DNA of 60,642 bases, the filler included, from Sphacelaria rigidula (Eukaryota): assembly GCA_964200075.2 (NCBI GenBank). It is 8 parts of 8 records of this genome, joined end to end, with 100 filler letters (N's around TTAATTAATTAA, not from the genome) between each part and the next. Parts side by side here need not be neighbours in the genome. Positions count along the whole stretch, not along the records: positions 22,780 to 30,272 come from CAXNAA020014674.1; 7 more parts are not named here. One strand, written 5' to 3'. Under the pieces are notes generated by a model. The model was not told the DNA's origin and ran no database searches. It worked only from the letters and a program-made list of their open reading frames with translations. Positions 7,594 to 55,364 of this stretch are shown piece by piece. The position numbers and the translations under genes were made by a program. Each line of letters starts with the position of its first letter. Position 1 is the first letter of the stretch.

Positions 7594-8710
7594 TCTCGCT
7601 GCTTCTTTAACGCAGATTCTCGACGGCTTCCTCGCCGAGATCAACCCGGACCGTGCCAAGGGGAAGACAGGTCCGGTATTACTATCTGATTTGGAGAGGC
7701 GTCTGATCAGTTACTTCGATACAAGTGACCAGGCCAGTGCCATCCAGAGGCTGAGTTATTTTGTCGTCGCCACTGATGTCCCCTTCGCGGATTATCTCCG
7801 CGAATTTAAGCTTTTGGTTTCGGGTACGACGGGTGTCGGACGCCAGAATGGACCGAGCGACGCAATGTGTCAGACTTACGTTCGCAATAGCGTTGCCCAA
7901 CAGTATCCGGCTCTGATGCAGTCGTTGTTTCCGGGTGTCTTGGCGCATCGCGAGGTGCCTTACGCCTCCGTTGATACTATGTGGTCTGCTTTTGTACACC
8001 AAGAGAGTAATCTAACGCCTGCCATACGTGGCAAACCTTCAACGTCTGTGCGTTCACAACCTACGGTTGTACCCTCCGCTCATGCCCAAGGGGCTCGTGG
8101 CAGGAATTCGAACTCGTCTCGCGCTTCATGGACCCCCGACTCAGTCGCCGGTTCAGTCATGCATGTTCAGGGTACCAGGGATGCATTCAGCGCGAGTTTT
8201 GATGGTTGACCGCTTTCCGAGGAAACTTGGAATGATGTTTATTTTACTTCAACAACGGCACACATAACCGATGACCCCCATTTGTGGAACCCACTTCTTT
8301 CGCCTTCCGCTAGACGCAATGCCTTCAGCAGTCATGCCAACAGTTGCATCAACTGTAGTGTTCAAGGCCACAGCATGCGCGACTGCGACAGTCCATGCAT
8401 CAATGCCTTTGATCTCATGAACCCTGAATTGCAGGACGATGAACCCGCGTGGCGCCGATGGCAAAATCGCATGCGCGACTATCGTCCACCAAATCGAAAT
8501 TACCGCAACAATTCGAACTAACGTGGCAACAAAAGCTCTGATCGCGGTCGCCGACACAACAACAATCACGGAAGCCCTCGCCAGAACGATCAAAATTCTC
8601 GCGACAACAAACGTTCCGCTGATGGACACCAACGGACGGGACCGACACGAAGTTCTAATCCCAACACCAGAAACCCTGGTACCTTCACTACGGATCGCTT
8701 AGATCCATGA
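7594..8710 (+). pseudogene. gag: gag, C-terminal part with CCHC zinc knuckle
   Basis: CINCSVQGHSMRDC (CX2CX4HX4C) at ~8345-8387, followed by an R/N-rich tail. Premature stops at 8207 and 8519 correspond to TGG/CAA in copy B. Confidence 0.85.
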
Positions 8711-9852
8711 CGTGCCGACACCGGCGTTCTTCGGCCTTTCACGCCATCGATAGCACGAGCGAAGACTTTCTCAACACAGCCCGCGGAGTCCGTGTCTAAA
8801 GTTGCTCACTCAAGTCCCTGGCACTATCCAGGAGCGTAACTGACGGCCGTTCCTATCGACCCCCGTGTCCAACCTCCACACAATTTTCAACACAGCCCGC
8901 AGAGCCCGCGACTAAGATTGCCCACCCGGCTCCCCCAGCACTACGCAGGAGTGCAACTGACGGCCCTTCATATCGACCCCCATCTTCATTCACCCCTCCA
9001 CACACCGCGTAACAGTTGTGTCACCCCGCGACTCAGCCCTACACCCGGCTTTGAACTTGGTCCTTCAGTACTGAGTATAAGTCTGAGGTGTGGGAAGACC
9101 AACCGCCAGTCCCTGAGGCAAATGCTTCCCTCAGCGACCGCACGCACAGGTAGCAGCAAGCCTTGTTCAGCTGATACAAGTGTTGCTGATTTGAACCTGG
9201 CCACATCCGATCATGTAATTCCCAATCAGTTGGATCGAGCTCCTTCCCCGCGATTTTCAAGACGCACGGACCTACCTTCGGCCGGTTTTAATAACAACCG
9301 CCCCAACATATCTTCGGCTATGCCCCAACAGCCAAGCTTGCCTACGGAAAGCAGCCCAGAAGTTTCGCTCCGTCATGCCCCGATGCTGACCCCATCCACG
9401 CAACTGGACGCAGTTGTGGTTCCATCCCAAAATATTTTGGAAGTTCCCCGACCTTTGTCACGGCGAAAGAAAAAGCCCCGTAAGCATGCCCCCAAAGATG
9501 CGCGCGCATCATTACGTACACCTCTTTCGAGCGGAAATCCTCGACCTCAATCTCTCCAAAATGCGACGACTTTGAGCTCGACGGCTCTATCAAGTATCCC
9601 GGAAAAAATAAAATCACATTATTCTAACGGCACTATTTCTTCAATCGACCATTCCAGCCCCGCATATCTGGATCCCCCTTTGATGGTGGTCCCTGTCAAC
9701 CAAACACGATCTTTGACGAAATCGCCAATGACCGTGCCACACCTAGAAATAATATACCGTCCACCCCCTTCTCTGGTGAGATACCTGATCCACCGGCGGA
9801 TCACCCGCCGTGCGTTTTTGCTGTCAGCCCCGCTGATCCTGACCAGTTTATC

Positions 9853-10449
9853 TTGCCGGAACACGATCCGGATCTTGTCGGCGGTAAAGTGTCTGTAGAT
9901 CCGACCACTTTCACTACAAGCGTTGCGATCCATGCCGGTCCAGACGCTATCACGCCTATGAAATGCGTATCCTTGTTGGACAGCGGCAGCCCGCAAACAT
10001 TTATTCGAGAATCAACATGGAAACACATGAAACAGACTGGCGCTGCTTCTGCAGCTTGCGAAACCACCACCAAACCTCGCGTGTGGGGCGGTTTCGGTGA
10101 TTCTGCCGCACCACTGACGACACGTAAATCCGTACGTCTCAGTATACAATTCTTTCACAACACCACTCGATCTGCCAGCCTGGCAGTCTGGGTATACATT
10201 GTCCCCGACAGCACAATGCATCACGCCATATTATTGGGCAGAGATAGCTATATGCGGTTTAACAAACGCACCTACCGCACGCTTCCACCACTAACGCCAC
10301 ATTCCACGCCGCGTGGAGAACTTAATTTCGAGCACTTCGGTACTCTGAACGGCGCCCTGGCTTATCAGAAGAATCCTCAAGCAACCGGAGCTGCTTACCA
10401 CCTACGATACAACGGTAGCGTGGGTATAACACTCTCTGACGACCACTAA
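9853..10449 (+). pseudogene. pol: Retropepsin-like aspartic protease
   Basis: LLDSGS active-site motif, GGFG flap and ILLGRD C-terminal motif. Confidence 0.9.
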
Positions 10450-19700: not shown

Positions 19701-22610
19701 AAAAAGTAGCTCCCGATTAAGTCGAGTGTGCCCGAGTAGCTGTAATACAGAGACAGTATATTCAGATGGACGTGAAAAAGCTTTGGCATATCAAAAACGT
19801 GCCTGCTGCGGATAACGAAGATTCGGGACAGTTTACTGCTGCCCTCTTCACATCCATTCGTCGTACAGTTTGCAACATCCTTCACTTGGCGGATGCAACT
19901 GGCGTCCAACGCTTTGAAGATCCCCGTTGGGTAGACGGCTGGCAGACCCCATTGCATAAAGCATTGCATCGATCCATCAGCCGCCGCTCTCCCGACATCG
20001 TTGCTTCCTGAACACAGATTTTCGACGGCTTCCTCGCCGAAATGGATCCATATCGTGCCAAGGGGAAGACAGGCCCGGTATTGCTCTCTGATATGGAAAG
20101 GCATCTGATAGGTTTTTTAGACACAAGTGACCAAGCAAGTGCTATCCAGAGGCTGCATTCTTTTGCTGTCGCATCGGATGTCCCCGTCACGGATTATCGC
20201 GAACATAAGCTTTTAGTATCCGGTACTACGGGTGTCGGACGCCAAAACGGGCCGAGCGACGCAATGTGTCAGACTCAAATTCGCAATAGCGTTGCTCAAT
20301 AGTATTCGGCCCTGATGCCGTCGTTGTTTCCGGGTGTCTTGGCGCATCGCGAGGTGCCTTACGCCTCCGTTGGTGCTATGTGATCTGCTGCCGTACACTA
20401 AGAGGGTAATCTAACGCCCGTCATTCGTGACAAGCCTTCTACGTCTCTGCGTTCACAACCTACGGTTGTGTCCTCCGCTAATGCCTAACCAAGGGTCTCG
20501 CGGTAGGAACTCGAGTTCATCTCGCGCTTCATGGACCCCCGACTCGGTCGCCGGTTCAGTTATGCATGTTCAGAGTAACAGAGATGTATTCAGTGCGAGT
20601 TTTGATGGTTGGCCGTTCTCCGAAGAAACTTGGGGTGATGTATATTTGACTTCAACAACGGTATTCATTAAAAATTATCCCCATTTATGGAACCAACTTC
20701 TTTCGTCCCCTGCTAGACGCCATGCCTTCAGCAGTCATACCAACAGTTGCATCAACTGTAGTATTCAAGTCCATAGTACGCACGACTGCGACAGTCCATG
20801 CATCAATACCTTTAATCTCATGAACCCTGAATTACAAGACAATGAGCCCGCGTGGCGCCGATGGCAGAAACGCATGCGCGACTATCGCCCACCAAATCGA
20901 AATTATCGTAATAATTCGAATCAACGTGGCAAAAAATACTCTTATCGCGGTCGCCGACAAAACAACAATAATGCAAGCCTTCGCCAGAACGATCAAAATT
21001 CTCTCGACAACAAACGGTCCGCTGATAGACACCAGCGGACGGGACCGACACAGAACTCGAATCCCAACACAAGAAACCCTGGTACCTTCACTACGGATTG
21101 CATAGACCCATGACGTGCCAACGCTGGCGTTCCAAAATCTTCCTCGCCGCCGAGAGCACCAGCGAATATTTTTTCAACACAGCCCGCGGAGTCCATGACT
21201 AAAATTTCTCACCCGACGCCCCCGGCGTTATCCAGGAGCGCATCTGAAGGCCGTTCAAATCGACCCCCGTCTGTAACCTCCACACACTTTCCGACACAGT
21301 CCGCAGAGCCCGCGACTACGATTGTTCGCCCGGCTCCCCCGGCACTATGCAGGAGCGCAACTGATGGCCGTTCATATCGACCCCCGTCTTCACCCCTCCA
21401 CACACCGCGTAAGAGTTGTGTCACCCCGCGACTCCGACTTACACCCGGCCCTGAACTTGGTCCTTCAGTGCCGAGTATAAGTCTGAGGTGTGAGAGGACC
21501 AACCGCCAGTCCCTCAGGCAAAGGCTTCCCTCAGCGAGGGCACGCACATGTAGTAGCAAGCCTTTTTCAGCTGACCCAAGTGTTGCTGATTCGAACTTGA
21601 CCACATCGGATCATGTAATTCCTAATCAGCTGGATCGAGCTCCTTCCCCGCATATTTCAACACGCACGGACCTACCTTCGGCCGGTTCTAATAACAACCG
21701 CCCCAAAATACCTTCGGCTATGACCTTCCAGCCAAGCTTGCCGACGGAAAGCAGCCCACAAATTTCGCTCGATCATGCCCCGACGCTGACCCCATCCACG
21801 CTACTGGACTCAGTTGTGGTTTCATACCAAAATGTTTTGGAAGTTCCCCGACCTTTCTCACGGCGAAAGAGAAAGCTCCGTAAGCATGCCCCCAAGGACG
21901 CGCGCGCATCATCACGTACACCTCTTTCGAGCGGGAATCCTCGACCTTAATCTCTCCAAAATGCGACGAGTTTGAGCTCGACGGCTCTATTAAGTATCAC
22001 GGAAGAAACAAAATCACATGTTTTTGACGGCACAACTTCTTCAATCGACGACTCCAGCCCCGCACATTCTGGATCCCCCTTGGACGGAATCCTTTCAACC
22101 AAAGACTGTTGCCGAGATAGCCCCCCCCGAACCGGCCGAAAACGTGCACGGAGGCGCTGATCGTAAATGCCGTTAGCGCTGGTTTCGTGCTTCACGACGC
22201 GACTCATGTGGGCGTTATAGCTGATTTCGGACTGCTACGACCCGGTCATGTGAGCGGAATCGCTGCGAATGAGCCCAATAGTGGGATCGCAGCCGGTTTG
22301 TCGCACGGTCTCCCGTGCACTTTTTGTGGGGGAGGCTATCTCGGCATTAGTCCAAAGACGATCATTTACGAAATCGCTCATGGTCACTCTGACCGTGCCA
22401 CACCTGGAAATAATATGCCGTCGACCCCCTTCTCTGGTGAGAAATCTGACCCACCCGCGGATCACCCGCCGTGCGTTTTTGCTGTCAGCCCGGCTGATCC
22501 TGACCAATTTCCCCTGACGGAACACGGTCCGGATCTTGTCGGCGGTACAGTGTCTGTGGATCCGGCCAATTTCATCACACGCGTTGCGATCCATTCTAGT
22601 CCAAACGCTA
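16796..22610 (+). mobile_element. Degenerate Ty3/Gypsy element, copy B (same family as copy A): long gag, spacer and protease N-terminus; 5' boundary uncertain
   Basis: 20000-22610 aligns nearly throughout with 7594-9950 (shared DTSDQASAIQRL, CINCS.Q.H...DC, PDLVGG.VSVDP). Interrupted at 22610 by a TA-flanked insertion. Confidence 0.92.
17909..21113 (+). pseudogene. gag: Very long gag-like ORF broken by stops and frameshifts
   Basis: ORFs 17909, 19184, 19766 and 20042 share one frame. Contains an Ala/Arg-rich helical segment, a Gly-rich linker, a gag core and CINCSIQVHSTHDC, ending at TGA 21111-21113. Confidence 0.75.
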
Positions 22611-23009: not shown

Positions 23010-23372
23010 TGTGTTGTGTTGTGTGTGCTGTCATCCCATCTATTCTGGACGCCAGTCTGCACCTTTCGGTATGTGTGAGCGCATCAGCCGGGGTCATAAG
23101 GAAGAAGGCTAACACGGGATTTTTTTTTTTTTCAACACTCCACCATCCTTCTGCGGTACGTACTTCCATTCATTTTGTTTAATCGCGAGAGGGGTTCAGG
23201 AGTCCCTGTCCCTCGTCGACCGTCGAGTCGAATTTTGTGTACCCATGGCATCGTCGCTCTCCACTGTTAAGTCCTGTGTGAGAAAAAACGCGTGACGGCA
23301 ACGAGATTCGAACCCACAATCCAACCGCCAGAAGGTTTCGAGGTCACCAACTCAGCTGCCGGGGTGACCGGC
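23010..23372 (-). mobile_element. tRNA-headed SINE, copy 1
   Basis: Minus strand reads gccggtcaccccggcagctgagttggt (A box) ... gggttcgaatctcg (B box), with a conserved body and (CAACA)n tail. Homologous to 32348-32700 and 48960-49300. Confidence 0.85.
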
Positions 23373-23670
23373 TTCTCCATATACCTGGTAATACCACAGG
23401 GTACCCAGGATATCGTCTGTTGAAAACATTCAGTGTTTCAGGGTAGTACCCAGGATATCGATAGCTCAATATACTCTGTATCCGAAAAATATCCAGGGTA
23501 TATCGATATCACCCCAAAATACCCTCTTGTGTACCCTATACTTGACCCTCTCACCAATCTACTAATAGTCGATACCCCAAAATACCCTCCTTTGTACCCT
23601 CCACTCAACCCTCTGGCCCACCTCTAAGCACCTACTTTACCCTCCAACCATTTCAGTCGACACCTCTTGA

Positions 23671-25452
23671 CCCTTTTGGAACCGTTGATGGACAATTGAC
23701 GATTTACATTTGACGTTTTTTCGGCCAAGAAACGGTTGTTTTTCTACAGCTTTTGAGCAAACGACTCGTCCCAAGTGTGTTCTTCAGACCCGTGCGAATG
23801 GAACGTGGAAGAAAAGAAGGTTCGAAGGTTCTCTATTTTACGGGTATGACGAATTGTTCGACCCGTCGGTGTTTTGTAACCCCGGCCAGAGTGCACGGCT
23901 GACTCTCCGTGAAGCAACCTTCACGCCACACCTGCAGTAGATGCTTTGCACCGCATTACAGCAAGCTTGCGCCTAAGTTGAAATAACGAAGGCGAAACCG
24001 ACGGCACATTTATCTCACTTACGCCCCCGTCTACTGTCTGTATTCGCAGACAGTCACCGTCAGGCCCTGTGGGGATGTGTTCACCTACTCCTCTATACTG
24101 CGTGTGATCATGATATTTTCAGCTTATGTCGAGGGTAAACTCATGCCGCGCACGCTACTGTACCCTGTCGTACGCGTTTATACGGCACCAAACTGCGGTT
24201 TGATCATTCCATACCGGCGACGAGGACGTCATGTACCCCGCCGTTATACGTACTCCTGGTGCAGCGTAGGCGGGGGCCGTTACTTTGACTTATCCGATAC
24301 AGGCTGTCACTTTGTAGGCTGTGATCTTACGGCATATCTCATCCTGCGCATTGTGCTGTACGTTTCCACGACACCACCTCTATACTGGAGGTTGGTCATG
24401 TCTGAACGTTGCACAACCGTACCTTGTGCTGCGTGAGGTGTATCACTCCGGCTGGCGCTATCGCCTTTGGACTGTCTGTCCTCGTGGATGGCGTTGGGGT
24501 TTCATGCAATGATATCGCATACAGGTACCTCCTGTCTTTTGGCATGGAAGACAGTTACATCGTTATTCAGTTATACTGGACTGTAGCGAGGTGTAGTTAC
24601 TGACTGTAGTTGTAGTTGGGTTAGGCTGGTTGCGAAAGGCTGCCCCGGTCGTTTGTCGACCGTTTTGCTAGTATATCGCCTGTCTGGAAGCTTGCAGTCA
24701 CGTCCGCCTGGTGTCTCCTACATAATCCTGTGTGCCTCGCTGCGTTTTCTCTTGCTGGGGTTACTGTGCTGACGCTCGGTAAGCGAGCGGGGGGGGGGCG
24801 GTGTGAACCGCGGGGGGCAATGGGCTGCCCCAACTGTTCTTGCAGCTTTTTCAGCGAAACGCCTGGCAGCGTCCTGACCGTGCTTCTCAGCTACCTCTTC
24901 CAGCTGAACGTGAATTGCATATGGGTCGCTCTTCAGCGCTTCCACATGTGGCGACGGGATTTCCACGTGCTCCGCCATATCGTTGTCGCCGGCCGTGTAG
25001 TGTGGCTTCCTACGCTCGCCAACTCTTGATGATTCAACCCACCAGAACGGTGCACTAGTCTAATTTCAAGTATACTAGCGCGCCACTCTAACTTCAAGTA
25101 TACGAATGTGACGGGTTCGTGCACCGAACTCGTATTGACGTATTTCACACATTCTCCTGACAAAAATCCCAAGTATACCTGTAGGAGTTTGTACTGTTTT
25201 GCGAGAGTTTCGTCGATGCGCACAATTGGACACACTTCGCCCGTCGCGTGACATCATTGGACAAACGCAACCCGACCGCTTCGGGGTTCCGTTTTCGGTA
25301 CATCCATGACATGTGCGTCTGGAGTCTTCTTTGATCTTCCACAGTAAAAATGGTTGCTGTCGGTCTTTTCTGTTTCCATATTTTCTTCTTTATCAGGGCT
25401 TCTCATGATGAGGCGTCTGGCCCGGGGACGGGAGGGGAGAGTTCCAAAAGGG
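23671..25452 (-). mobile_element. piggyBac-like TTAA element (1.78 kb) carrying an unknown spliced gene; no transposase recognised
   Basis: 12-bp perfect TIR CCCTTTTGGAAC (23671) / GTTCCAAAAGGG (25441-25452), flanked by TTGA (variant) and TTAA. Confidence 0.8.
23830..24978 (-). pseudogene. Cargo gene of the TTAA element, copy 1 (degenerate, probably multi-exon)
   Basis: MAEHVEIPSPHVEALKSDPYAIHVQLEEVAEKHGQDAARRFAEKAARTVGAAHCPP..., with a frameshift in the G-run near 24790. Homologous to 54523-54948. Confidence 0.65.
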
Positions 25453-29327: not shown

Positions 29328-29579
29328 CTCGCGGTCGAAGGGTTAAATCATACAGAGACAATCGAATAAAACGGACTATCATACCCATCCACATAAAAAC
29401 GCGTTGCCCGTGAGATGAGGAATGTCTGCGAACTATTTTTTTTGGTAATGCCTCTTCCGTTTGCGACGCGAGGCTCGCAGCGGAAAATGCTTCGTCGAGG
29501 TAGCAGCTGAGCTAACTCTTCTCTCACTTCCAACTTCTCCCACTCCTACTAGGGGCATCATTAACCCGTAGACCGCGAG
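29328..29579. mobile_element. Two outward-facing piggyBac-type termini (end of one element, start of another)
   Basis: ctcgcggtcgaaggg|TTAA (29328-29346) and TTAA|cccgtagaccgcgag (29561-29579). Confidence 0.55.
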
Positions 29580-29976: not shown

Positions 29977-30248
29977 GGCAAAACTTCACGCTGTTTTAAG
30001 GAGTTAGACCCTGAAATATTGCACGAATATTCTTTGGGTCATTACGCAATTTTGCAGGAATGTTTTTTTTTACTTTTCACCGTTTTGCGGGGGTCCCAGA
30101 TTTTTGGGGGGAAACCTCGACCCAATCGGACCCCCGTAAAACGGTGAAAAGTATTAAAAAACACTCCTGCAAAGTTGCGTAATGACCCAAAGAATATTCG
30201 TGCAAAATTTCAGGGTCTAACTCCTTAAAGCGGCGTGAGGTTTTGGCC
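29977..30248. mobile_element. Foldback MITE with ~120-bp arms and ~30-bp loop
   Basis: ttaaggagttagaccctgaaat...cttttcaccgttttgcgggggtcc is the reverse complement of ggacccccgtaaaacggtgaaaag...atttcagggtctaactccttaa. Confidence 0.88.
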
Positions 30249-32347
30249 TTTGTGCGATGAAGTTTGCCGTACNNNNNNNNNNNNNNNNNNNNNNNNNNNN
30301 NNNNNNNNNNNNNNNNTTAATTAATTAANNNNNNNNNNNNNNNNNNNNNNNNNNNNNNNNNNNNNNNNNNNNAGGACGTGGATAAGATATGTAAGAGGTT
30401 CTTGTGTAATGTATGGAAAAAACGTAATGAGCTACGGAAGGAAAGTACCCGTTCGGGAAAGACCTTATCGAAAAGCCATTGTTGATCAGCGATTTTTTTC
30501 AGATGGAATTGCGCACTTAGTCGTCATCATTCGAGTCGCCATCATTCGAGTCGCTGTCATCGGACAGCAGTAGTAACAGGCCACCTTGCGGAAGAAGCAC
30601 TTGCAACAGGGCGATACAGTTTTTACTAATGCCCCTCTCTTGCGTATTCCGCTGCAAAGCGGTGGTGGAGAGATGACGTTGTGGGTAAGCGATTCATGGA
30701 TGGTCAAGTTATCACCATCACCGCGTTTGTCTGCTTGTGCATTAGCATGATCCCTCTCAGAATGCCCCACGTCCAGCTATATGACTAAACCACAGCCTTC
30801 CCGTCGTGTGTTTCTAGCGTTCCGTATCGAAGAAAAGGGTGGTCCTGCTGTGGTCGAAACCCTTACCTGGCAGGTTCCGTCAATATCCACGCAAACGCCT
30901 CGCACTGTCTCGGCATCGATGCTCTTGACATTGAGTGTGATGAGCTCCAGGCTAAGATAGTCGCAGCGTTCTGGCGGAGTACGTGCGGGAGGTCGGACGT
31001 GATCGCGGCAGCGGCAAGGGAGGAAGGGTTGGGTAAGGACTCGAGACGTTTTCCAGCGAATAATTCAGGCGACATGTGGGCCGTTGGGATATGTTCCATT
31101 TCTATGCCCTTCACGAGGCGAACAGCGAAAGTATGGCGCCATGTTTGCTGGTATTTGAAGCAATACAAGCAGCAGGCCACATACGAGGTATAACGGAAAG
31201 GTTATGCTCCATGAGGACTATCTTCCTGCAGCCTTGCTGAAAAGAAAATGCGACACTTCGGGAACCTCGGAGGGTGGAGGGGCTGCAAATGACGTCGTTT
31301 GGCGGGTGAAAATGGTGTGAGATCACAGTGCCTCAGCCGCTACGCGATGCGATTGCAATGGGTTGATCCTCGATCCGACGGTTTCGCTTAAACAAAGAAA
31401 CTGCACCAGGTTTGAATGTCGGCGGTTGCTCATAGGTTTAAGCAACTAGGTTCCGTGCAAAGCGTACATTTAAGGTGAAACGCAGGATTTTGTCGTACAC
31501 CTTGGATGGGCAGTACAGTAGTAGCAGGCGTTTCACGAACATTGGTAGCCATAAATGGATCGGCCGTGAGTACGAAACTCAGCATGTTTCATGAGCGGGC
31601 ACAGAACGTCTACGGGAATGTTCGTCCATACAAAGGGTACGGACGGGCTATTCATGTCGGGATTATTTTCTTTCTACCGGTGAATATGCCACTTTTTCTG
31701 TACTCTGTACTACCCACTTGTTTCCCTCGTGCCCTTTATGACGCAGCATTTCAATTATGGCGCGACATACGACAAAAGTCCCATGGGAGATCGTTTATAA
31801 CCCGACTTCTCGGGAACAAGGCTATCCTTTACATAGACCCCGGTGATCGAAATAACTGATTCGCATGAATCGGGCGAGGAACTGTCGGGGTCACTTTGCC
31901 ACTATGTCTATCGCCATACAACAAAAACAGAGCACTCGAGGGCGCTACTCATGAATTATCGAACTAACTTATCAATAAAAACATGCCCCCCCCCCCCCTC
32001 CCACACACACACATGTCGTGTATTTTTTCTACGTCACACTTTCGAATTCCTCCCGTTTCTTGGAATGGGTTCGTGGTCTCAAGGGATCACACCCATCTCT
32101 CCCCGGTACACGCCTCTCCCTGTTGCCTCGCGGATTGGATCATAACGAACACTCCCGCATTGCGCCAGCTTTCCTCGAACAATCTCAGTCGAACTCGCTT
32201 CAGTGTCCTCACGTCCTCACGCTTGACACGGTAGAAACCAGACACTTTGAAGTAAAATTCCAAATACATCTGGCGGAAATGGAATTCGCGTTCTTCCCAA
32301 CCTAATGGTGTCAGTTGTACCATTTTAATTCACACCACCGCCACCAA

Positions 32348-32700
32348 GCCGGTCGCACCGGTGGCTCAGTTGGTAACCTCGAAACCTCCTGACGGCTGAG
32401 TCGCGGGTTCGAATCTCGGTGCAGTCACACGATCCGGGATTTTTTCTCACACATTACCCAACAGTGGAGAGCGACTTTGTCGTAGCTACATAAACTACGA
32501 CTTCACAGTCGACGAGGGAAAAGGACTGCTGAACCCCTCTCGCGACAAAATAAACCAGTCAAGCACCGCAAAAGGAAGTATGAAAAAAAAAATCCTGTGT
32601 TGCCATTTCTCCTGAGTGACTTCGGCTGATGCGCCCACATACACCGAAAGGTGTAGACTGCCGTGCAGAATAAAGGGGATAGGCACATGACACACACAAC
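32348..32700 (+). mobile_element. tRNA-headed SINE, copy 2 (full length)
   Basis: gccggtcgcaccggTGGCTCAGTTGGt...GGTTCGAATC, conserved body (ggactgctgaacccctctcgcga) and CA-rich tail. Confidence 0.88.
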
Positions 32701-47537: not shown

Positions 47538-49300
47538 GCCGGTCGCCCCGGTGGCTCAATTGGTGAAAAAGGCCGGATGTTGTGGTACCAGAATCTTGGC
47601 TCACAGATTTTTTATTCCTGGCGAAATAAATCCGCGGCAAATTTGGACTCGGGAACCATATCGCAGCAGACAGATTTTCATACCATATTGTTCTGATATG
47701 TATACAGTTGGGGGCTCTCAGCAGTGCTGGTACGTGCCCACCACGGACACCGGCACTACTCAGAGGGCCTGGCACTACTCTGAAAAGTGCCAAAACCGGT
47801 GCAATGGAGGGCTCTGAATACTTCAGTAGTGCCACTTGCTGCAGATGCGGTGCATTTCGTTGTCGCCAAACATGCTGCCGCAAATATCGTGGAGCCTCCC
47901 GCCACATGTCCCCTGGCAACCGTGGCCATGACGGCCTTCTGGCGTCGTGGCCTGCACCAGGCACGGTTCACCTTCCGCACAAGCCATGTTTTGTCCCTAC
48001 GTTGCAAGGTCTTCACCAGCACGTACCCTCCTGTACCCCTACTGGTGCTTGGTTGGTGGGGTGTAAGGCGTGCGTGAGTGTGTCCGGCACCGACACTGTT
48101 GTAGGTACAAAACCGTTCGAATCGGCACTACTGAGGGTCATCTGTTAGTAGTGCCGGGCGGCACTACTGCGAGCTCTGGCTGTGCCCGGAGATTTTACCG
48201 GCATTATATAGGTCGTTGGCACTATTCAACCGGCACTACTGAGAGCCCCCCCACTGTACCTCCGCCAGGGTTTCGAGGTTTATGCGTAGCGCGTTCCAAT
48301 AGCTCACAGTCCCGTAGATGTCTTGTGTGTCGTGGTGTGCTGTAGTGATGCAGCGTCACTGCCGCAGAGATATCATCGCCACCCCACTAACACCAGTGCC
48401 GGTTTCTTCGAGCACATTAGTAAGCGACCATGCCCCCCCTGTTGCTGTTAAAGTTAAATCCTTTATCGAAGGATCGCAGAACCACCCGCCAGACAGCGAC
48501 AGTGCGCATCACATGTCTCCTCTCTCGACGTATCTGCAATGCTTTCGCCAGGAGACCGACGAGCAAGACATGTCGTTTTTTGTCTCGTACGCGCCAAGCG
48601 AGCTCCATCGCGCGTTGGTTGCAGCGTGTGGTTACTTCGTGTGTTGTTGGTTGTGGTCGACAGGATCACCCACAAAGGTGCAGGCAGCCAGCACGCCGGT
48701 ACATGAAAGAAAAACGCGGCGTGACCCCATTATGACGGTCTGCCTGCGAAAACGCAAAAATCTGTGTGCAATAATCTGTGCTTGCCGACCCCGGCAGTTT
48801 GCCCGAAAAATTGTGAGACTCGGGCCCCGAATCTTGGCCGTGAATTGTTTCGCCCATAATTTCGAATAGTCTGTACCCATAAGATGGGGGTACTGTACCA
48901 CGAATGTTTTCGAAATCTGAAGATCGGCGGCCAAAAATCTGTTGCCATAACATCCGGTCTAACCTCGAAACCTTCTGACGATTGGAGCGTCGGTTCGAAT
49001 CTCGGAGCGACCTAGGATTATTTCTCACACAATATCCAATAATGGAGAGCGACTATGTCGTGGGTACACAAAATTCGACTCGACGGTCGACAAGGGAAAG
49101 GGACTAAGGGACTGCTGAACCCCTCTCGCGATAAAAACTAAAGACAAGCCCCGCAGAAGGAAGGTGGAAAACTAAATCGAATAAAAAGAAAAAACTCCTG
49201 TGTGGACCTTCCTCCTGTGTGACCCCGGCTGGTGCGCCCACATATACCGGAAGGTGTAGACCGACGTCCAGGACAAATAGGATGACAACACAACACACAG
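47538..49300 (+). mobile_element. tRNA-headed SINE, copy 3, split into 47538-47565 and 48960-49300
   Basis: The A-box half gccggtcgccccggtggctcaattggt is at 47538. The remainder taacctcgaaacc...ggttcgaatctc and the body resume at 48960. Confidence 0.82.
47571..48959. mobile_element. 1.39-kb non-autonomous TIR element (PIF/Harbinger-like) inserted in the SINE head
   Basis: TIR ggccggatgttgtgg...acagattttt / aaaaatctgttgccataacatccggtc. Right flank TAA. Internal ggcactact repeats. Confidence 0.72.
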
Positions 49301-49806
49301 AAACAGAAGTTAGGCGGACCGCGTGACTGACTTGGCTTTTTGTTTTTACCCGCGATTCAAGTTTTTTTTTATTTTGGGGAGCCATGTTGAAATCGCTTCA
49401 AGTAATTTGGAGAAAAAAAAGGCAAAGGAGGTAAATGATAGGCCTGAGTGCAGTTACTGTGGTGTCAAAATTTCACCCCGAAACTCGAAAAATTGAGTGG
49501 GTTGTCGTTATTCAGCACTTCCGCGTCAAAAAAAGTGCCCCGATGGTCCGACGGCCAGACTGTCAACGTCAGGGTGGAGATAGCATGGGTTTGATTCCCG
49601 CCCGACGCACTTTTTTTGTCTTTTGGGAATATGGTCTTCATCGTTTGAAGCATTTGGACGTTGGGAGAGATGGGTTGATTCCTCGAAACCACGGACTCAT
49701 CCCGAGGAAAGAGATGGGTTTCGAGTGCAACGAAAAAAAAAGTTCGTGTGTCGATAGAGTATGAAAACAAAAAATCGTGCGCAGAAAATGTAGTAAGTTG
49801 GAGATC

Positions 49807-52710: not shown

Positions 52711-53799
52711 TGCACGAGTACAGCATCCGAAACAATATCGTCCTCAGTACGAAACATGACTGGCGCCGCCTAGTGCAGCACGGGCAAAGCAAACAGGGTC
52801 GTCTGTATGGGCCACTCCTCAGTTTCGTGAGTAAACGGTGTGCCCGCACACATGCTAGCTTGACACCACCGCAATTACGTGTCCAAATAATCAACCGCCC
52901 GCTTCCCACGTATTCATACTGTAATTTGAAGTTCGTTGTTCAGTTGGTCTGATACTCCCACGATAGTTTTTTTTTTTTGCATTGGTCACTTCAGTGCCCC
53001 CCCACACCTGCCCCTCTCTACCTTCCTCGCTCCGACCCCTCTGTTTCGTTNNNNNNNNNNNNNNNNNNNNNNNNNNNNNNNNNNNNNNNNNNNNTTAATT
53101 AATTAANNNNNNNNNNNNNNNNNNNNNNNNNNNNNNNNNNNNNNNNNNNNGTCTTACACACTTATGAGCCTCTTTTTTCGTGCAACCAAATCCCCCCCCC
53201 CCCTATCGTAGGATGACTCAAACACGAAAAATAGTGTAGAGTTTGTGCGCTCACTGCATGTTTCGATGCAAGGTGGAAAGTGCTTGAAACAATGAACACA
53301 ACAAGGCTGCACCGTCAGATGACACGCCCAGTGGCATCACGCCATGAATTACTTCATTGTGATGTGCTCTTCGTGTTGAACATGTAGCATTAGTGACTCC
53401 CGTCTCCTCACCACCATATCCATACCGTACACTCACACACTTGAACAACATATATATGCTTCCTGTCCCCACCTACCGCCCGTCCTCCCTCGCCTACCCG
53501 TCACCTACGTTCGCCTTCATGGGCCTCATATCTTCAGCCACTCGCTCCACCAGTGGTGGCCTTCACCGACAATCTCATCCCAAATCATGCAGTAAATCCA
53601 GCATATAAACCCTGCCCGCCGTGAAACACTGCAGGCTTTGTCTCCTTTCCTGCGCGCATTTTCCTGCTCAAAACTCCACTAATGCGCTAGGAAACAAAGA
53701 CACGAAGACACTCTAAATTCTAACGCTGCTGTGGTCTCTCACCAACGGCAATTGCAGTGGTGCTCATTCTCAATTCCAGACTTCTCCGTTAGCCGCCGC

Positions 53800-55364
53800 A
53801 GTGACTAGAATTTTCCTACATAAACGCGTGCTGAATGACGGCGCTCATAGGCTCGCCCCCGGGCTAGAGCGCACGGCAAGCCTGCGTGAAGCCTTTCTCT
53901 CGCCGCACTTGAACTCCCCTTCCTTTGCAGTTGATGCCTTTGGCCGCATCGTAGCATGCCTGTGCAATAGTTACAACAACAACGGCGACACGCACGGTGT
54001 GTTCCCCCCGCTCATGCACTGTCAGTGTATCTGCCGGTGTGTTCCAGCAAAAGGCGACCACTCGGGGGAGCCCCTGGGATGCTATGGTATTGCGCTGTAC
54101 CCGGGGTGTGCATCATATCTTCCACCTGTCTCCCCTATACATTTCGGCAGCACTAACGTATACTGCAGATTGATCGTTCCACAAGATCGACCCATTCGGC
54201 ATATCCACTATATTTATGCACCGTCGGTGTGCGGCACACAAAGGTGGTCACTTTTACGCCGGGCCAGGGGTGCTGCTCTTCTGCTCTTTAGTGGTTCTGT
54301 GCACGAGATTAGCTTCTTGACTGATGTCCCATGGCATGTGTATTACTGTTTGTACAAACTTCCTGCATCATTTGTGTATAGTACGGATCCATCATTCATC
54401 ATGATTACAAATGCATGCTCCGTGCTGCGTATGATCGATCAACCTGGTCGGCGCCATCGTGTGTGCACCGTGTGTTCTTATGGGCTAAGGTCGTCTGCAA
54501 TATGAGGGTGTTACACCACGGGTTAGACTGAAGCCACAGCGCGACGCTGTACTCTACCTAACTGCATGCACCGACCATGGTGAAGTACGATTCTCCGCAC
54601 CTGGTTGCGGTAGGCTGTTCCGGTGGGTTCCTTTCCGTTTTTCTCGATGTCCTCCGTTCGAACAGCCGCAGTTATGGACGCCTGGTGTTTTCCACACAGG
54701 CCCGAGTGTCCTGAGGCATTTTCCTTAGCGGCATCCAAGTTGATGACATCCGGGAGCCGTGCGGGGGGTAATGTATGCGTCGGGGGGCAATGCGCTGCCC
54801 CGACGGCTCTTGCTGCCTTCTCTGCAAAAACCCTTGCTGCCACCTTCCCTTGCGTTTCCGCAACCGCTTCCACCTGGCGGTGAATTGCGTAAACGTCGTA
54901 GCTCAATCCTTTCACGTCTGGTGACGGAATCTCTGTATGCTCGGCCATACTGCGTTGTTTCTGTGATGTACCTTAGCACGCTTGACAAGTGTTGGGCGGG
55001 TGCGAACTCCAGATTGCATCAAAACAGCACTGCGGTTGGTGCGTCACCATTATAATTTTGTGCCCAAGTAGCACACGGGACGAAATGACTAGAAAATAGA
55101 CTGGAGGTGCTGGTTTTTGTAATCTGCGATTTAGAGGGCCGCGGTGCTGGTTTTGGCTGCGTCCCCTGATTGGGTTGAAAATAACCCGACCGCACCGGGG
55201 CGACATTGTTTATGCAAACATGACGTATGTCGGTGGATTCTTCTGTGGCCTTCCGGCATAACAATGGTTGTCGTCGGTATTGTTTTTTCAAATTTTCTTC
55301 TTTGTCAGCACTTGAAATAATGAGGCGTCTGGACCGGGGACGGAAGGGGAGGGTTTCCGAAGGG
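53800..55364 (-). mobile_element. piggyBac-like TTAA element, diverged copy 2 (only one terminus found)
   Basis: Terminal 45 bp (55320-55364) match 25408-25452 at 39/45 positions and are followed by TTAA (55365-55368). Same cargo gene in the same orientation. Confidence 0.72.
53830..54948 (-). pseudogene. Cargo gene of the TTAA element, copy 2
   Basis: MAEHTEIPSPDVKGLSYDVYAIHRQVEAVAETQGKVAARVFAEKAARAVGAAHCPP...AYRNQ|gtgcgg. Candidate acceptors ttgcag (~54495) and atgcag (~54363). Stops occur downstream. Confidence 0.65.

Follow-up and report, generated by a model that had tools for sequence, protein, structure and literature searches.

A degenerate TTAA element of Sphacelaria rigidula as a probable internal-deletion derivative of a large multi-gene piggyBac

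A 60,642-nucleotide stretch of Sphacelaria rigidula DNA (assembly GCA_964200075.2), composed of eight contigs joined by spacers and referred to here as the window, contains a 1.78-kb unit with TTAA-like flanks, here assigned to family F1, which carries the remains of a conserved gene, designated gene A. The question raised by this locus is whether the unit belongs to a non-autonomous family that maintains a selected passenger gene, as one option of the first-pass annotation had it, or whether gene A had its place in another element. According to the evidence presented here, the unit is very probably a gene-dead, internal-deletion derivative of a large brown-algal piggyBac element with three genes.

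Both 12-bp terminal inverted repeats (TIRs) of the window unit are perfect, the termini are of the CCC..GGG type, and the unit is flanked by TTGA and TTAA, exactly as first described (Table 1). F1 is a true repeat family: a DNA search of its own genome produced at least 45 matches (40 of 1304 candidates scored), and both ends were present in 22 of the 30 loci fetched, which corresponds to at least 22 full copies. When the eight loci without both ends were excluded, both flanks were at most one mismatch away from TTAA in 19 of the 22 full copies, and the proposed association of TIRs with TTAA held upon extraction of the flanks; exact TTAA was found at 12 left and 9 right flanks. Identity of the 30 copies to their own consensus ranged from 87.5 to 94.9%, with a median of 92.6%. 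In the flanks of F1 and of a 665-bp family with the same ends (L001-L060), TTAA was often replaced by TCAA or TTGA, independently on each side, which points to relaxed targeting or to TA often changing to CA/TG.

The left end of F1 is homologous to that of long elements in the same genome, the homology continues through gene A, and it is followed by ca. 200 bp homologous to the right end of the long elements. This far-end segment abuts the WPG codons of gene A exon 2 directly, forming an internal-deletion junction. For the second window copy, originally ended at ca. 53800, the sequence in fact continues up to position 53151, where the contig stops; related copies measure 10-12.5 kb. The two window copies have 39 of 45 terminal bases and 40 of 56 N-terminal residues in common, both counts being the same as those reported initially, and the start codons at 24978 and 54948 are located 475 and 417 bp from the common end (ca. 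420-470 bp in the first estimate). The DNA between terminus and start codon had been described as not alignable, which applies to its poorly alignable middle only, as in the first 184 bp the consensuses of F1 and of the long family have 82% identity. Within the 665-bp family, only the first ca. 25 codons of gene A are left, and an abundant non-autonomous family of ca. 1.5 kb with the same TIR (L177-L192, e.g. G000:C7416) is devoid of most of exon 1 and of the GT donor.

Gene A in F1 is dead, and its decay is near-neutral. The window copy encodes no intact protein, with a frameshift in exon 1, a missing donor and an altered acceptor. The GT donor was found in none of the 30 F1 copies versus five of five long-family copies, the AG acceptor was retained in 15 of the 30, and exon 1 was open in seven. 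Compared to the long family, exon 2 of F1 has a -16/+1 lesion and a deletion of the final ca. 13 codons. The synonymous share of F1 alleles was 0.32 against a neutral expectation of 0.28 obtained from the non-coding parts, and singleton alleles fit neutrality (p=0.59). Between families, gene A was under purifying selection: for exon 1 of the F1 and long-family consensuses, the proportions of synonymous (pS) and nonsynonymous (pN) differences were 0.74 and 0.20, and the ratio of nonsynonymous to synonymous rates (dN/dS) was 0.07 with a bootstrap upper bound of 0.18, dS being saturated. The dN/dS check advised in the first-pass annotation therefore has a divided outcome, with constraint between the families and near-neutral change inside F1. 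Because the selection signal lies between families, and F1, which drifts near-neutrally, has no donor in any of its 30 copies, the option of a selected passenger is unsupported.

Gene A comprises two exons of 116 and ca. 47 codons, encoding a protein of ca. 163 amino acids. A 652-nt GT..AG joint connecting the exon 1 end with the ACY block was present in all three probable RNA runs (contigs placed on C6124) and was not seen in comparison run X1; the last transposase exon was also covered in the three runs. It is on the basis of this joint that the protein is read as 116 plus ca. 47 codons, and that the WNDQ.AV block (window 24210 and 54180), previously taken for a protein block, is intronic. 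As candidate exons, WNDQ.AV and the other mid-region blocks were rejected, since they were unused by the listed RNA joints and missing from the full homologues. The recommended spliced reconstruction and RNA check hence resulted in a two-exon gene. Each of the three probable RNA runs, unlike X1, additionally showed two non-canonical joints (L061:195-398 and 496-598), which may stem from transcripts of a related family whose middles are unalignable.

An exon 1 profile search matched 48 proteins, among them two repetitive proteins (P0016 and P0023) that were counted as false. The named homologues were from Ectocarpus sp., Pylaiella littoralis, Undaria pinnatifida and S. rigidula, and in Ectocarpus, Pylaiella and Undaria each there were several similar gene models. 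P0001, P0096 and P0043 were essentially letter-for-letter matches to loci of this genome, and are therefore not independent homologues. The intron position between RNQ and A is common to the full Ectocarpus, Pylaiella and Undaria models and to three distant loci in the genome studied.

In two families of this genome that are only distantly related, gene A and a DDE_Tnp_1_7 transposase are arranged tail-to-tail. On contig C6124, which is 90% identical to window copy 2, the left TIR, gene A and the last transposase exon are present together, and tiling from this contig via overlaps of 85-95% identity leads to the other transposase exons, a third gene (gene C) and the right TIR, ca. 12.5 kb in total. 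The autonomous form would accordingly be a three-gene piggyBac of ca. 12.5 kb, with a presumed continuous master. Complete TTAA-bounded long copies were found on two contigs (C4531 and C2853, 10.1 and 10.4 kb), with the first transposase exons and a further open reading frame (ORF) on the opposite strand. The catalytic core is located on related contigs, and one transposase exon matched PF13843 (DDE_Tnp_1_7) at E=1.8e-10, passing the cut-off, and another at 0.0026; three other transposase fragments had no PF13843 match. FDEQ, DNFF and GVD motifs were read in the exons, and we take these to hold the three transposase aspartates. The transposase is split by introns and convergent with gene A. 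In the distant family of contig C8075, gene A pieces are likewise accompanied by convergent transposase exons (41% identity in the D2 exon), and on contig C8760 an end of the type TCAA-CCCTTTTGG is situated ca. 460 bp before a gene A of 34% identity.

With TTAA flanks, CCC..GGG TIRs and PF13843 in the autonomous partner, the piggyBac assignment of the first-pass annotation stands, and so does its other option, that the gene is the second gene of a multi-gene piggyBac element. The suggested search for longer elements with the same TIR and a transposase yielded the tiled ca. 12.5-kb form and the linkage on C6124, and the DDD core is not present in the 1.78-kb unit, where no transposase had been recognised at the outset. 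A reading of gene A as a part or antisense of the transposase was rejected: the transposase terminates far downstream, on the opposite strand, and none of its exons has a match in F1 or in the window. Regarding the cysteine-rich domain at the C-terminus of piggyBac transposases, there is a Cys-rich stretch beyond a frameshift past the last transposase exon, with no relevant Pfam match. One transposase intron (L165:2400-2930, L061:4480-4961) is occupied by a satellite-like repeat whose depth is very high, and several contigs are interrupted at this repeat.

Taken together, F1 would have spread into TTAA sites by cut-and-paste with the transposase supplied in trans, as a passenger-free vehicle of which only the ends count, gene A being a fossil of the parent. 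The parent would carry gene A (spliced, ca. 163 amino acids, helical), the convergent DDD transposase and gene C. For gene A, the most likely role, in itself an evenly balanced proposition, is that of a trans-acting transposition helper contacting nucleotide or nucleic acid via two conserved arginines, and counter-silencing seems a rather doubtful role.

Gene C, a single ORF, is 430-460 codons long and contains a CCCH-like finger as well as the motifs GNCAY and HNHF. In a sister family it is 51% identical (pS 0.63, pN 0.31), and both motifs are conserved among the gene C copies as well as in a homologue with 49% identity; the search returned one outside homologue. A PDB sequence search returned no significant match. 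By its motifs, the product is probably an OTU-like protease, and deubiquitination of the transposase or of chromatin would be its most likely function. The C8075 family had no match to gene C; it has, together with C18715, a common ORF-like stretch near the far end (L196:8374-8793, L195:753-1148), possibly a different third gene.

The two-gene layout is already known, since PiggyBac-1_Ec32 of Ectocarpus is listed with a tail-to-tail transposase and lineage-specific protein, and the term undescribed used in the first-pass annotation does not apply. The Ectocarpus element is given as 9969 bp with CCCTT-AAGGG ends and TTAA (PMC12477816), and the supplement of that article lists its tail-to-tail spliced genes as a transposase and an Ectocarpus-specific protein. 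The likeness, as far as these entries go, extends to the CCCTT-AAGGG termini, TIRs of 12-13 bp, the TTAA target, a length of ca. 10 kb, non-autonomous partners, and the spliced transposase tail-to-tail with a lineage-specific protein; in contrast to the element described here, no third gene is mentioned in the entries for the Ectocarpus element. Judging from the Ectocarpus homologues, the second protein of PiggyBac-1_Ec32 would be gene A.

The Pylaiella homologue of gene A gave a confident compact helical model (pLDDT 92.6, pTM 0.88), for which neither PDB nor BFVD yielded a significant match. Neither Pfam on exon 1, nor a PDB profile search, nor a word-index search among longer proteins returned a match to gene A, and in the ESM Atlas there was no usable feature match for exon 1 or P0043 (structure rows with TM <0.5, poor model). 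Residues C58, H60, H82 and C86 are conserved in 34, 33, 36 and 38 of 38 alignment rows, and R115 is invariant. Because of the conservation of these four, the C-x-H...H-x3-C set is suggested to be one probable zinc site.

A resemblance of gene A to KolX and the P2X7 ballast was checked by motif spacing. Published ballast positions include R546, A549, C572, R578, F/Y581 and P582 (PMC7016195), and the gene A spacing R, A(+3), C(+25), R(+6), W, P fits them. The ballast-spaced motif occurred in 8 of 16 spliced homologues versus 9 of 320,000 shuffles, with W allowed at 581, a linker tolerance of +/-1 and a partly post hoc definition. The seven-cysteine dinuclear zinc cluster of KolX and ballast was not found, as C58 and C86 are the only conserved cysteines of exon 1. 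KolX-like second ORFs are documented for piggyBac-2_GrCh and piggyBac-14_PI (PMC9587614, Data S6), and in the sections of that article concerned with them these ORFs are without the seven-cysteine cluster. By eye, they have the same R-x2-A ... C-x5-R-x-L-W-P spacing as gene A, which differs from the two published ORFs by an extra helical N-terminal part of ca. 85 residues, its own C-x-H/H-x3-C set, a linker shorter by one residue and the conserved intron. On this resemblance, homology of the gene A C-terminal part to KolX/P2X7 ballast appears moderately likely. The only PF20478 (P2X7 C-terminal) match in the genome was a weak one at L198 (G000:C7673:3836-3928, E=2.8), unrelated to gene A.

Two further systems resemble the element in part. 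Kolobok Kol0, with its transposase and KolX, is similar in the TTAA target, the small accessory protein and the ballast-like spacing; Kolobok ends are RR..YY according to the passages of PMC9587614 on this group, whereas the ends here are CCC..GGG and the transposase is of PF13843, which places the element outside Kolobok. Helentrons likewise include an OTU-like cysteine protease, but, as described in the relevant part of PMC6431247, they are rolling-circle elements with OTU fused to RepHel, and the OTU-like sequence described here forms an ORF of its own within a TIR element of the DDD type. In the literature searched, with Repbase and most subscription journals outside its scope, there was no precedent for the KolX link in brown algae, the splice evidence for gene A, or an OTU-like gene in piggyBac; the likely KolX link of the brown-algal protein and the OTU-like third gene are the new points.

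Three other explanations may be set against this interpretation. That F1 kept a functional shortened exon 1 product of ca. 135 amino acids, reading into the intron and selected during amplification, is highly improbable, even though consensus exon 1 is open with its conserved residues retained, the two non-canonical RNA-contig joints could derive from F1-like transcripts, and alleles in at least four copies lean synonymous (13 synonymous, 17 nonsynonymous, p=0.067). Exon 1 is broken in 23 of the 30 copies, singletons are neutral, exon 2, conserved in all full homologues, is both unreachable and damaged in F1, and the sister short families have spread despite the loss of most of gene A. Nor is gene A at all likely to be a captured host gene (Pack-type cargo) with no transposition role, as could be argued from the failure of any Pfam family or solved fold to explain it and from the result that no loci were confirmed for its context in other species among JGI metagenomes and viral contigs. 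Its position ca. 420-475 bp from the CCC terminus in several families, including the 34%-identical locus, its co-divergence with the transposase, the several similar models in three other brown-algal genera and the Ectocarpus piggyBac of the same layout all speak against capture. A lesser but real possibility, which leaves the element anatomy unaffected, is that gene A encodes a true accessory protein of piggyBac with its own fold, unrelated to KolX/ballast; against this are the fit to the ballast positions (F at 581), the equal lack of most cysteines in known piggyBac KolX-like ORFs, and the small size of the match, ca. 50 residues within a 595-residue chain, which may escape the searches used.

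Several observations weigh against the derivation of F1 from a three-gene piggyBac and against the roles read into its parent. No direct parent of F1 was identified, saturation of dS affects the comparison with the known long family, and the whole master is on no single contig, having been tiled from different copies. The DDD core is present in neither of the two complete TTAA-bounded long copies, and window copy 2, cut at the contig end, is assignable to neither the core-bearing nor the core-less long type. None of the sequencing runs containing the sequence is recorded as RNA; RNA status was guessed for four, and the three of these that were used are from a single study. Since the shared alleles lean synonymous and the within-family NG86 ratio is 0.60 (uncorrected; all F1 alleles p=0.073), room is left for weak selection early in the spread of F1. 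The gene A intron is alignable between families with saturated synonymous sites (score 180 versus a shuffled maximum of 55), with a block of ca. 90 bp of codon-like periodicity (window 24402-24526 region; copy 2 intron 53960-54600), for which a lost exon or a regulatory element are suggested alternatives. The eight motif hits are from two genera (Ectocarpus with six models, Undaria with two), part of the motif tuning followed inspection of the alignment, PF20478 had no match to gene A homologues or gene A loci, and PF02338 (OTU) was matched under the cut-off (E=0.019) by one of three gene C copies.

With the flagged unit read as an ordinary non-autonomous derivative, the parent element is of greater interest. 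piggyBac is a major gene-delivery tool, usually viewed as a one-gene element, and an accessory protein that is conserved and linked to it across brown algae could alter activity or targeting. We tentatively propose that an expressed piggyBac lineage with three genes may exist in brown algae, its transposase being served by two dedicated cofactors, a zinc protein derived from KolX/ballast and an OTU deubiquitinase. If so, the KolX family would extend to brown algae, and a small, soluble, well-folding stand-alone ballast relative would be at hand for probing KolX in TTAA-targeting transposons. If the ballast resemblance is true, a related helper would occur in two unrelated TTAA-targeting superfamilies, Kolobok and piggyBac.

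Table 1. Features of the F1 unit (copy 1) and of the long-element copy (copy 2) in the window.
Feature	Position	Strand	Basis or remark
Family F1 element, complete non-autonomous piggyBac derivative (very probable)	23671..25452	-	consensus 1765 bp
Degenerate target-site duplication TTGA	23667..23670	.	window sequence
12-bp TIR, end downstream of gene A	23671..23682	+	window sequence
Other 12-bp TIR of F1 unit	25441-25452		inside 184-bp subterminal region
Target-site duplication TTAA	25453..25456	.	window sequence
Conserved 184-bp subterminal region, common to four families	25269..25452	-	sequence comparison
Far-end segment, homologous to far end of long elements	23671..23879	-	internal-deletion junction
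Gene A exon 1 remnant, copy 1	24626..24978	-	353 bp, frameshifted; 116 codons in consensus
Gene A intron remnant, copy 1	23967..24625	-	no GT donor; holds WNDQ.AV block
Gene A exon 2 remnant, copy 1	23880..23966	-	acceptor AG to AA
Left 2.2 kb of long (10-12.5 kb) element, cut by contig end	53151..55364	-	TTAA at 55365-55368
Gene A exon 1, copy 2	54601..54948	-	open, 116 codons, then GT donor
Gene A intron, copy 2	53960..54600	-	641 bp, GT..AG, phase 0
Gene A exon 2, copy 2	53816..53959	-	premature TAG 53864-53866; lower bound counted from translation

Elsewhere in the window, five further TTAA-CCC ends were noted (2072, 27665, 29346, 57066 and 58554), the one at 29346 being similar to short-element ends in L160 and L166. 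Positions 7596-9949 and 19998-22610, on different contigs, are two diverged copies (82-90%) of a multi-kb repeat, located in long-ORF, C-rich regions and probably a retroelement. Another repeat is present in three copies of ca. 80% identity (23174-23374, 32346-32699 and 48962-49302), one of them just upstream of the F1 insertion, and a 118-bp inverted repeat with a 31-nt loop (29979-30245) is situated at a contig end.
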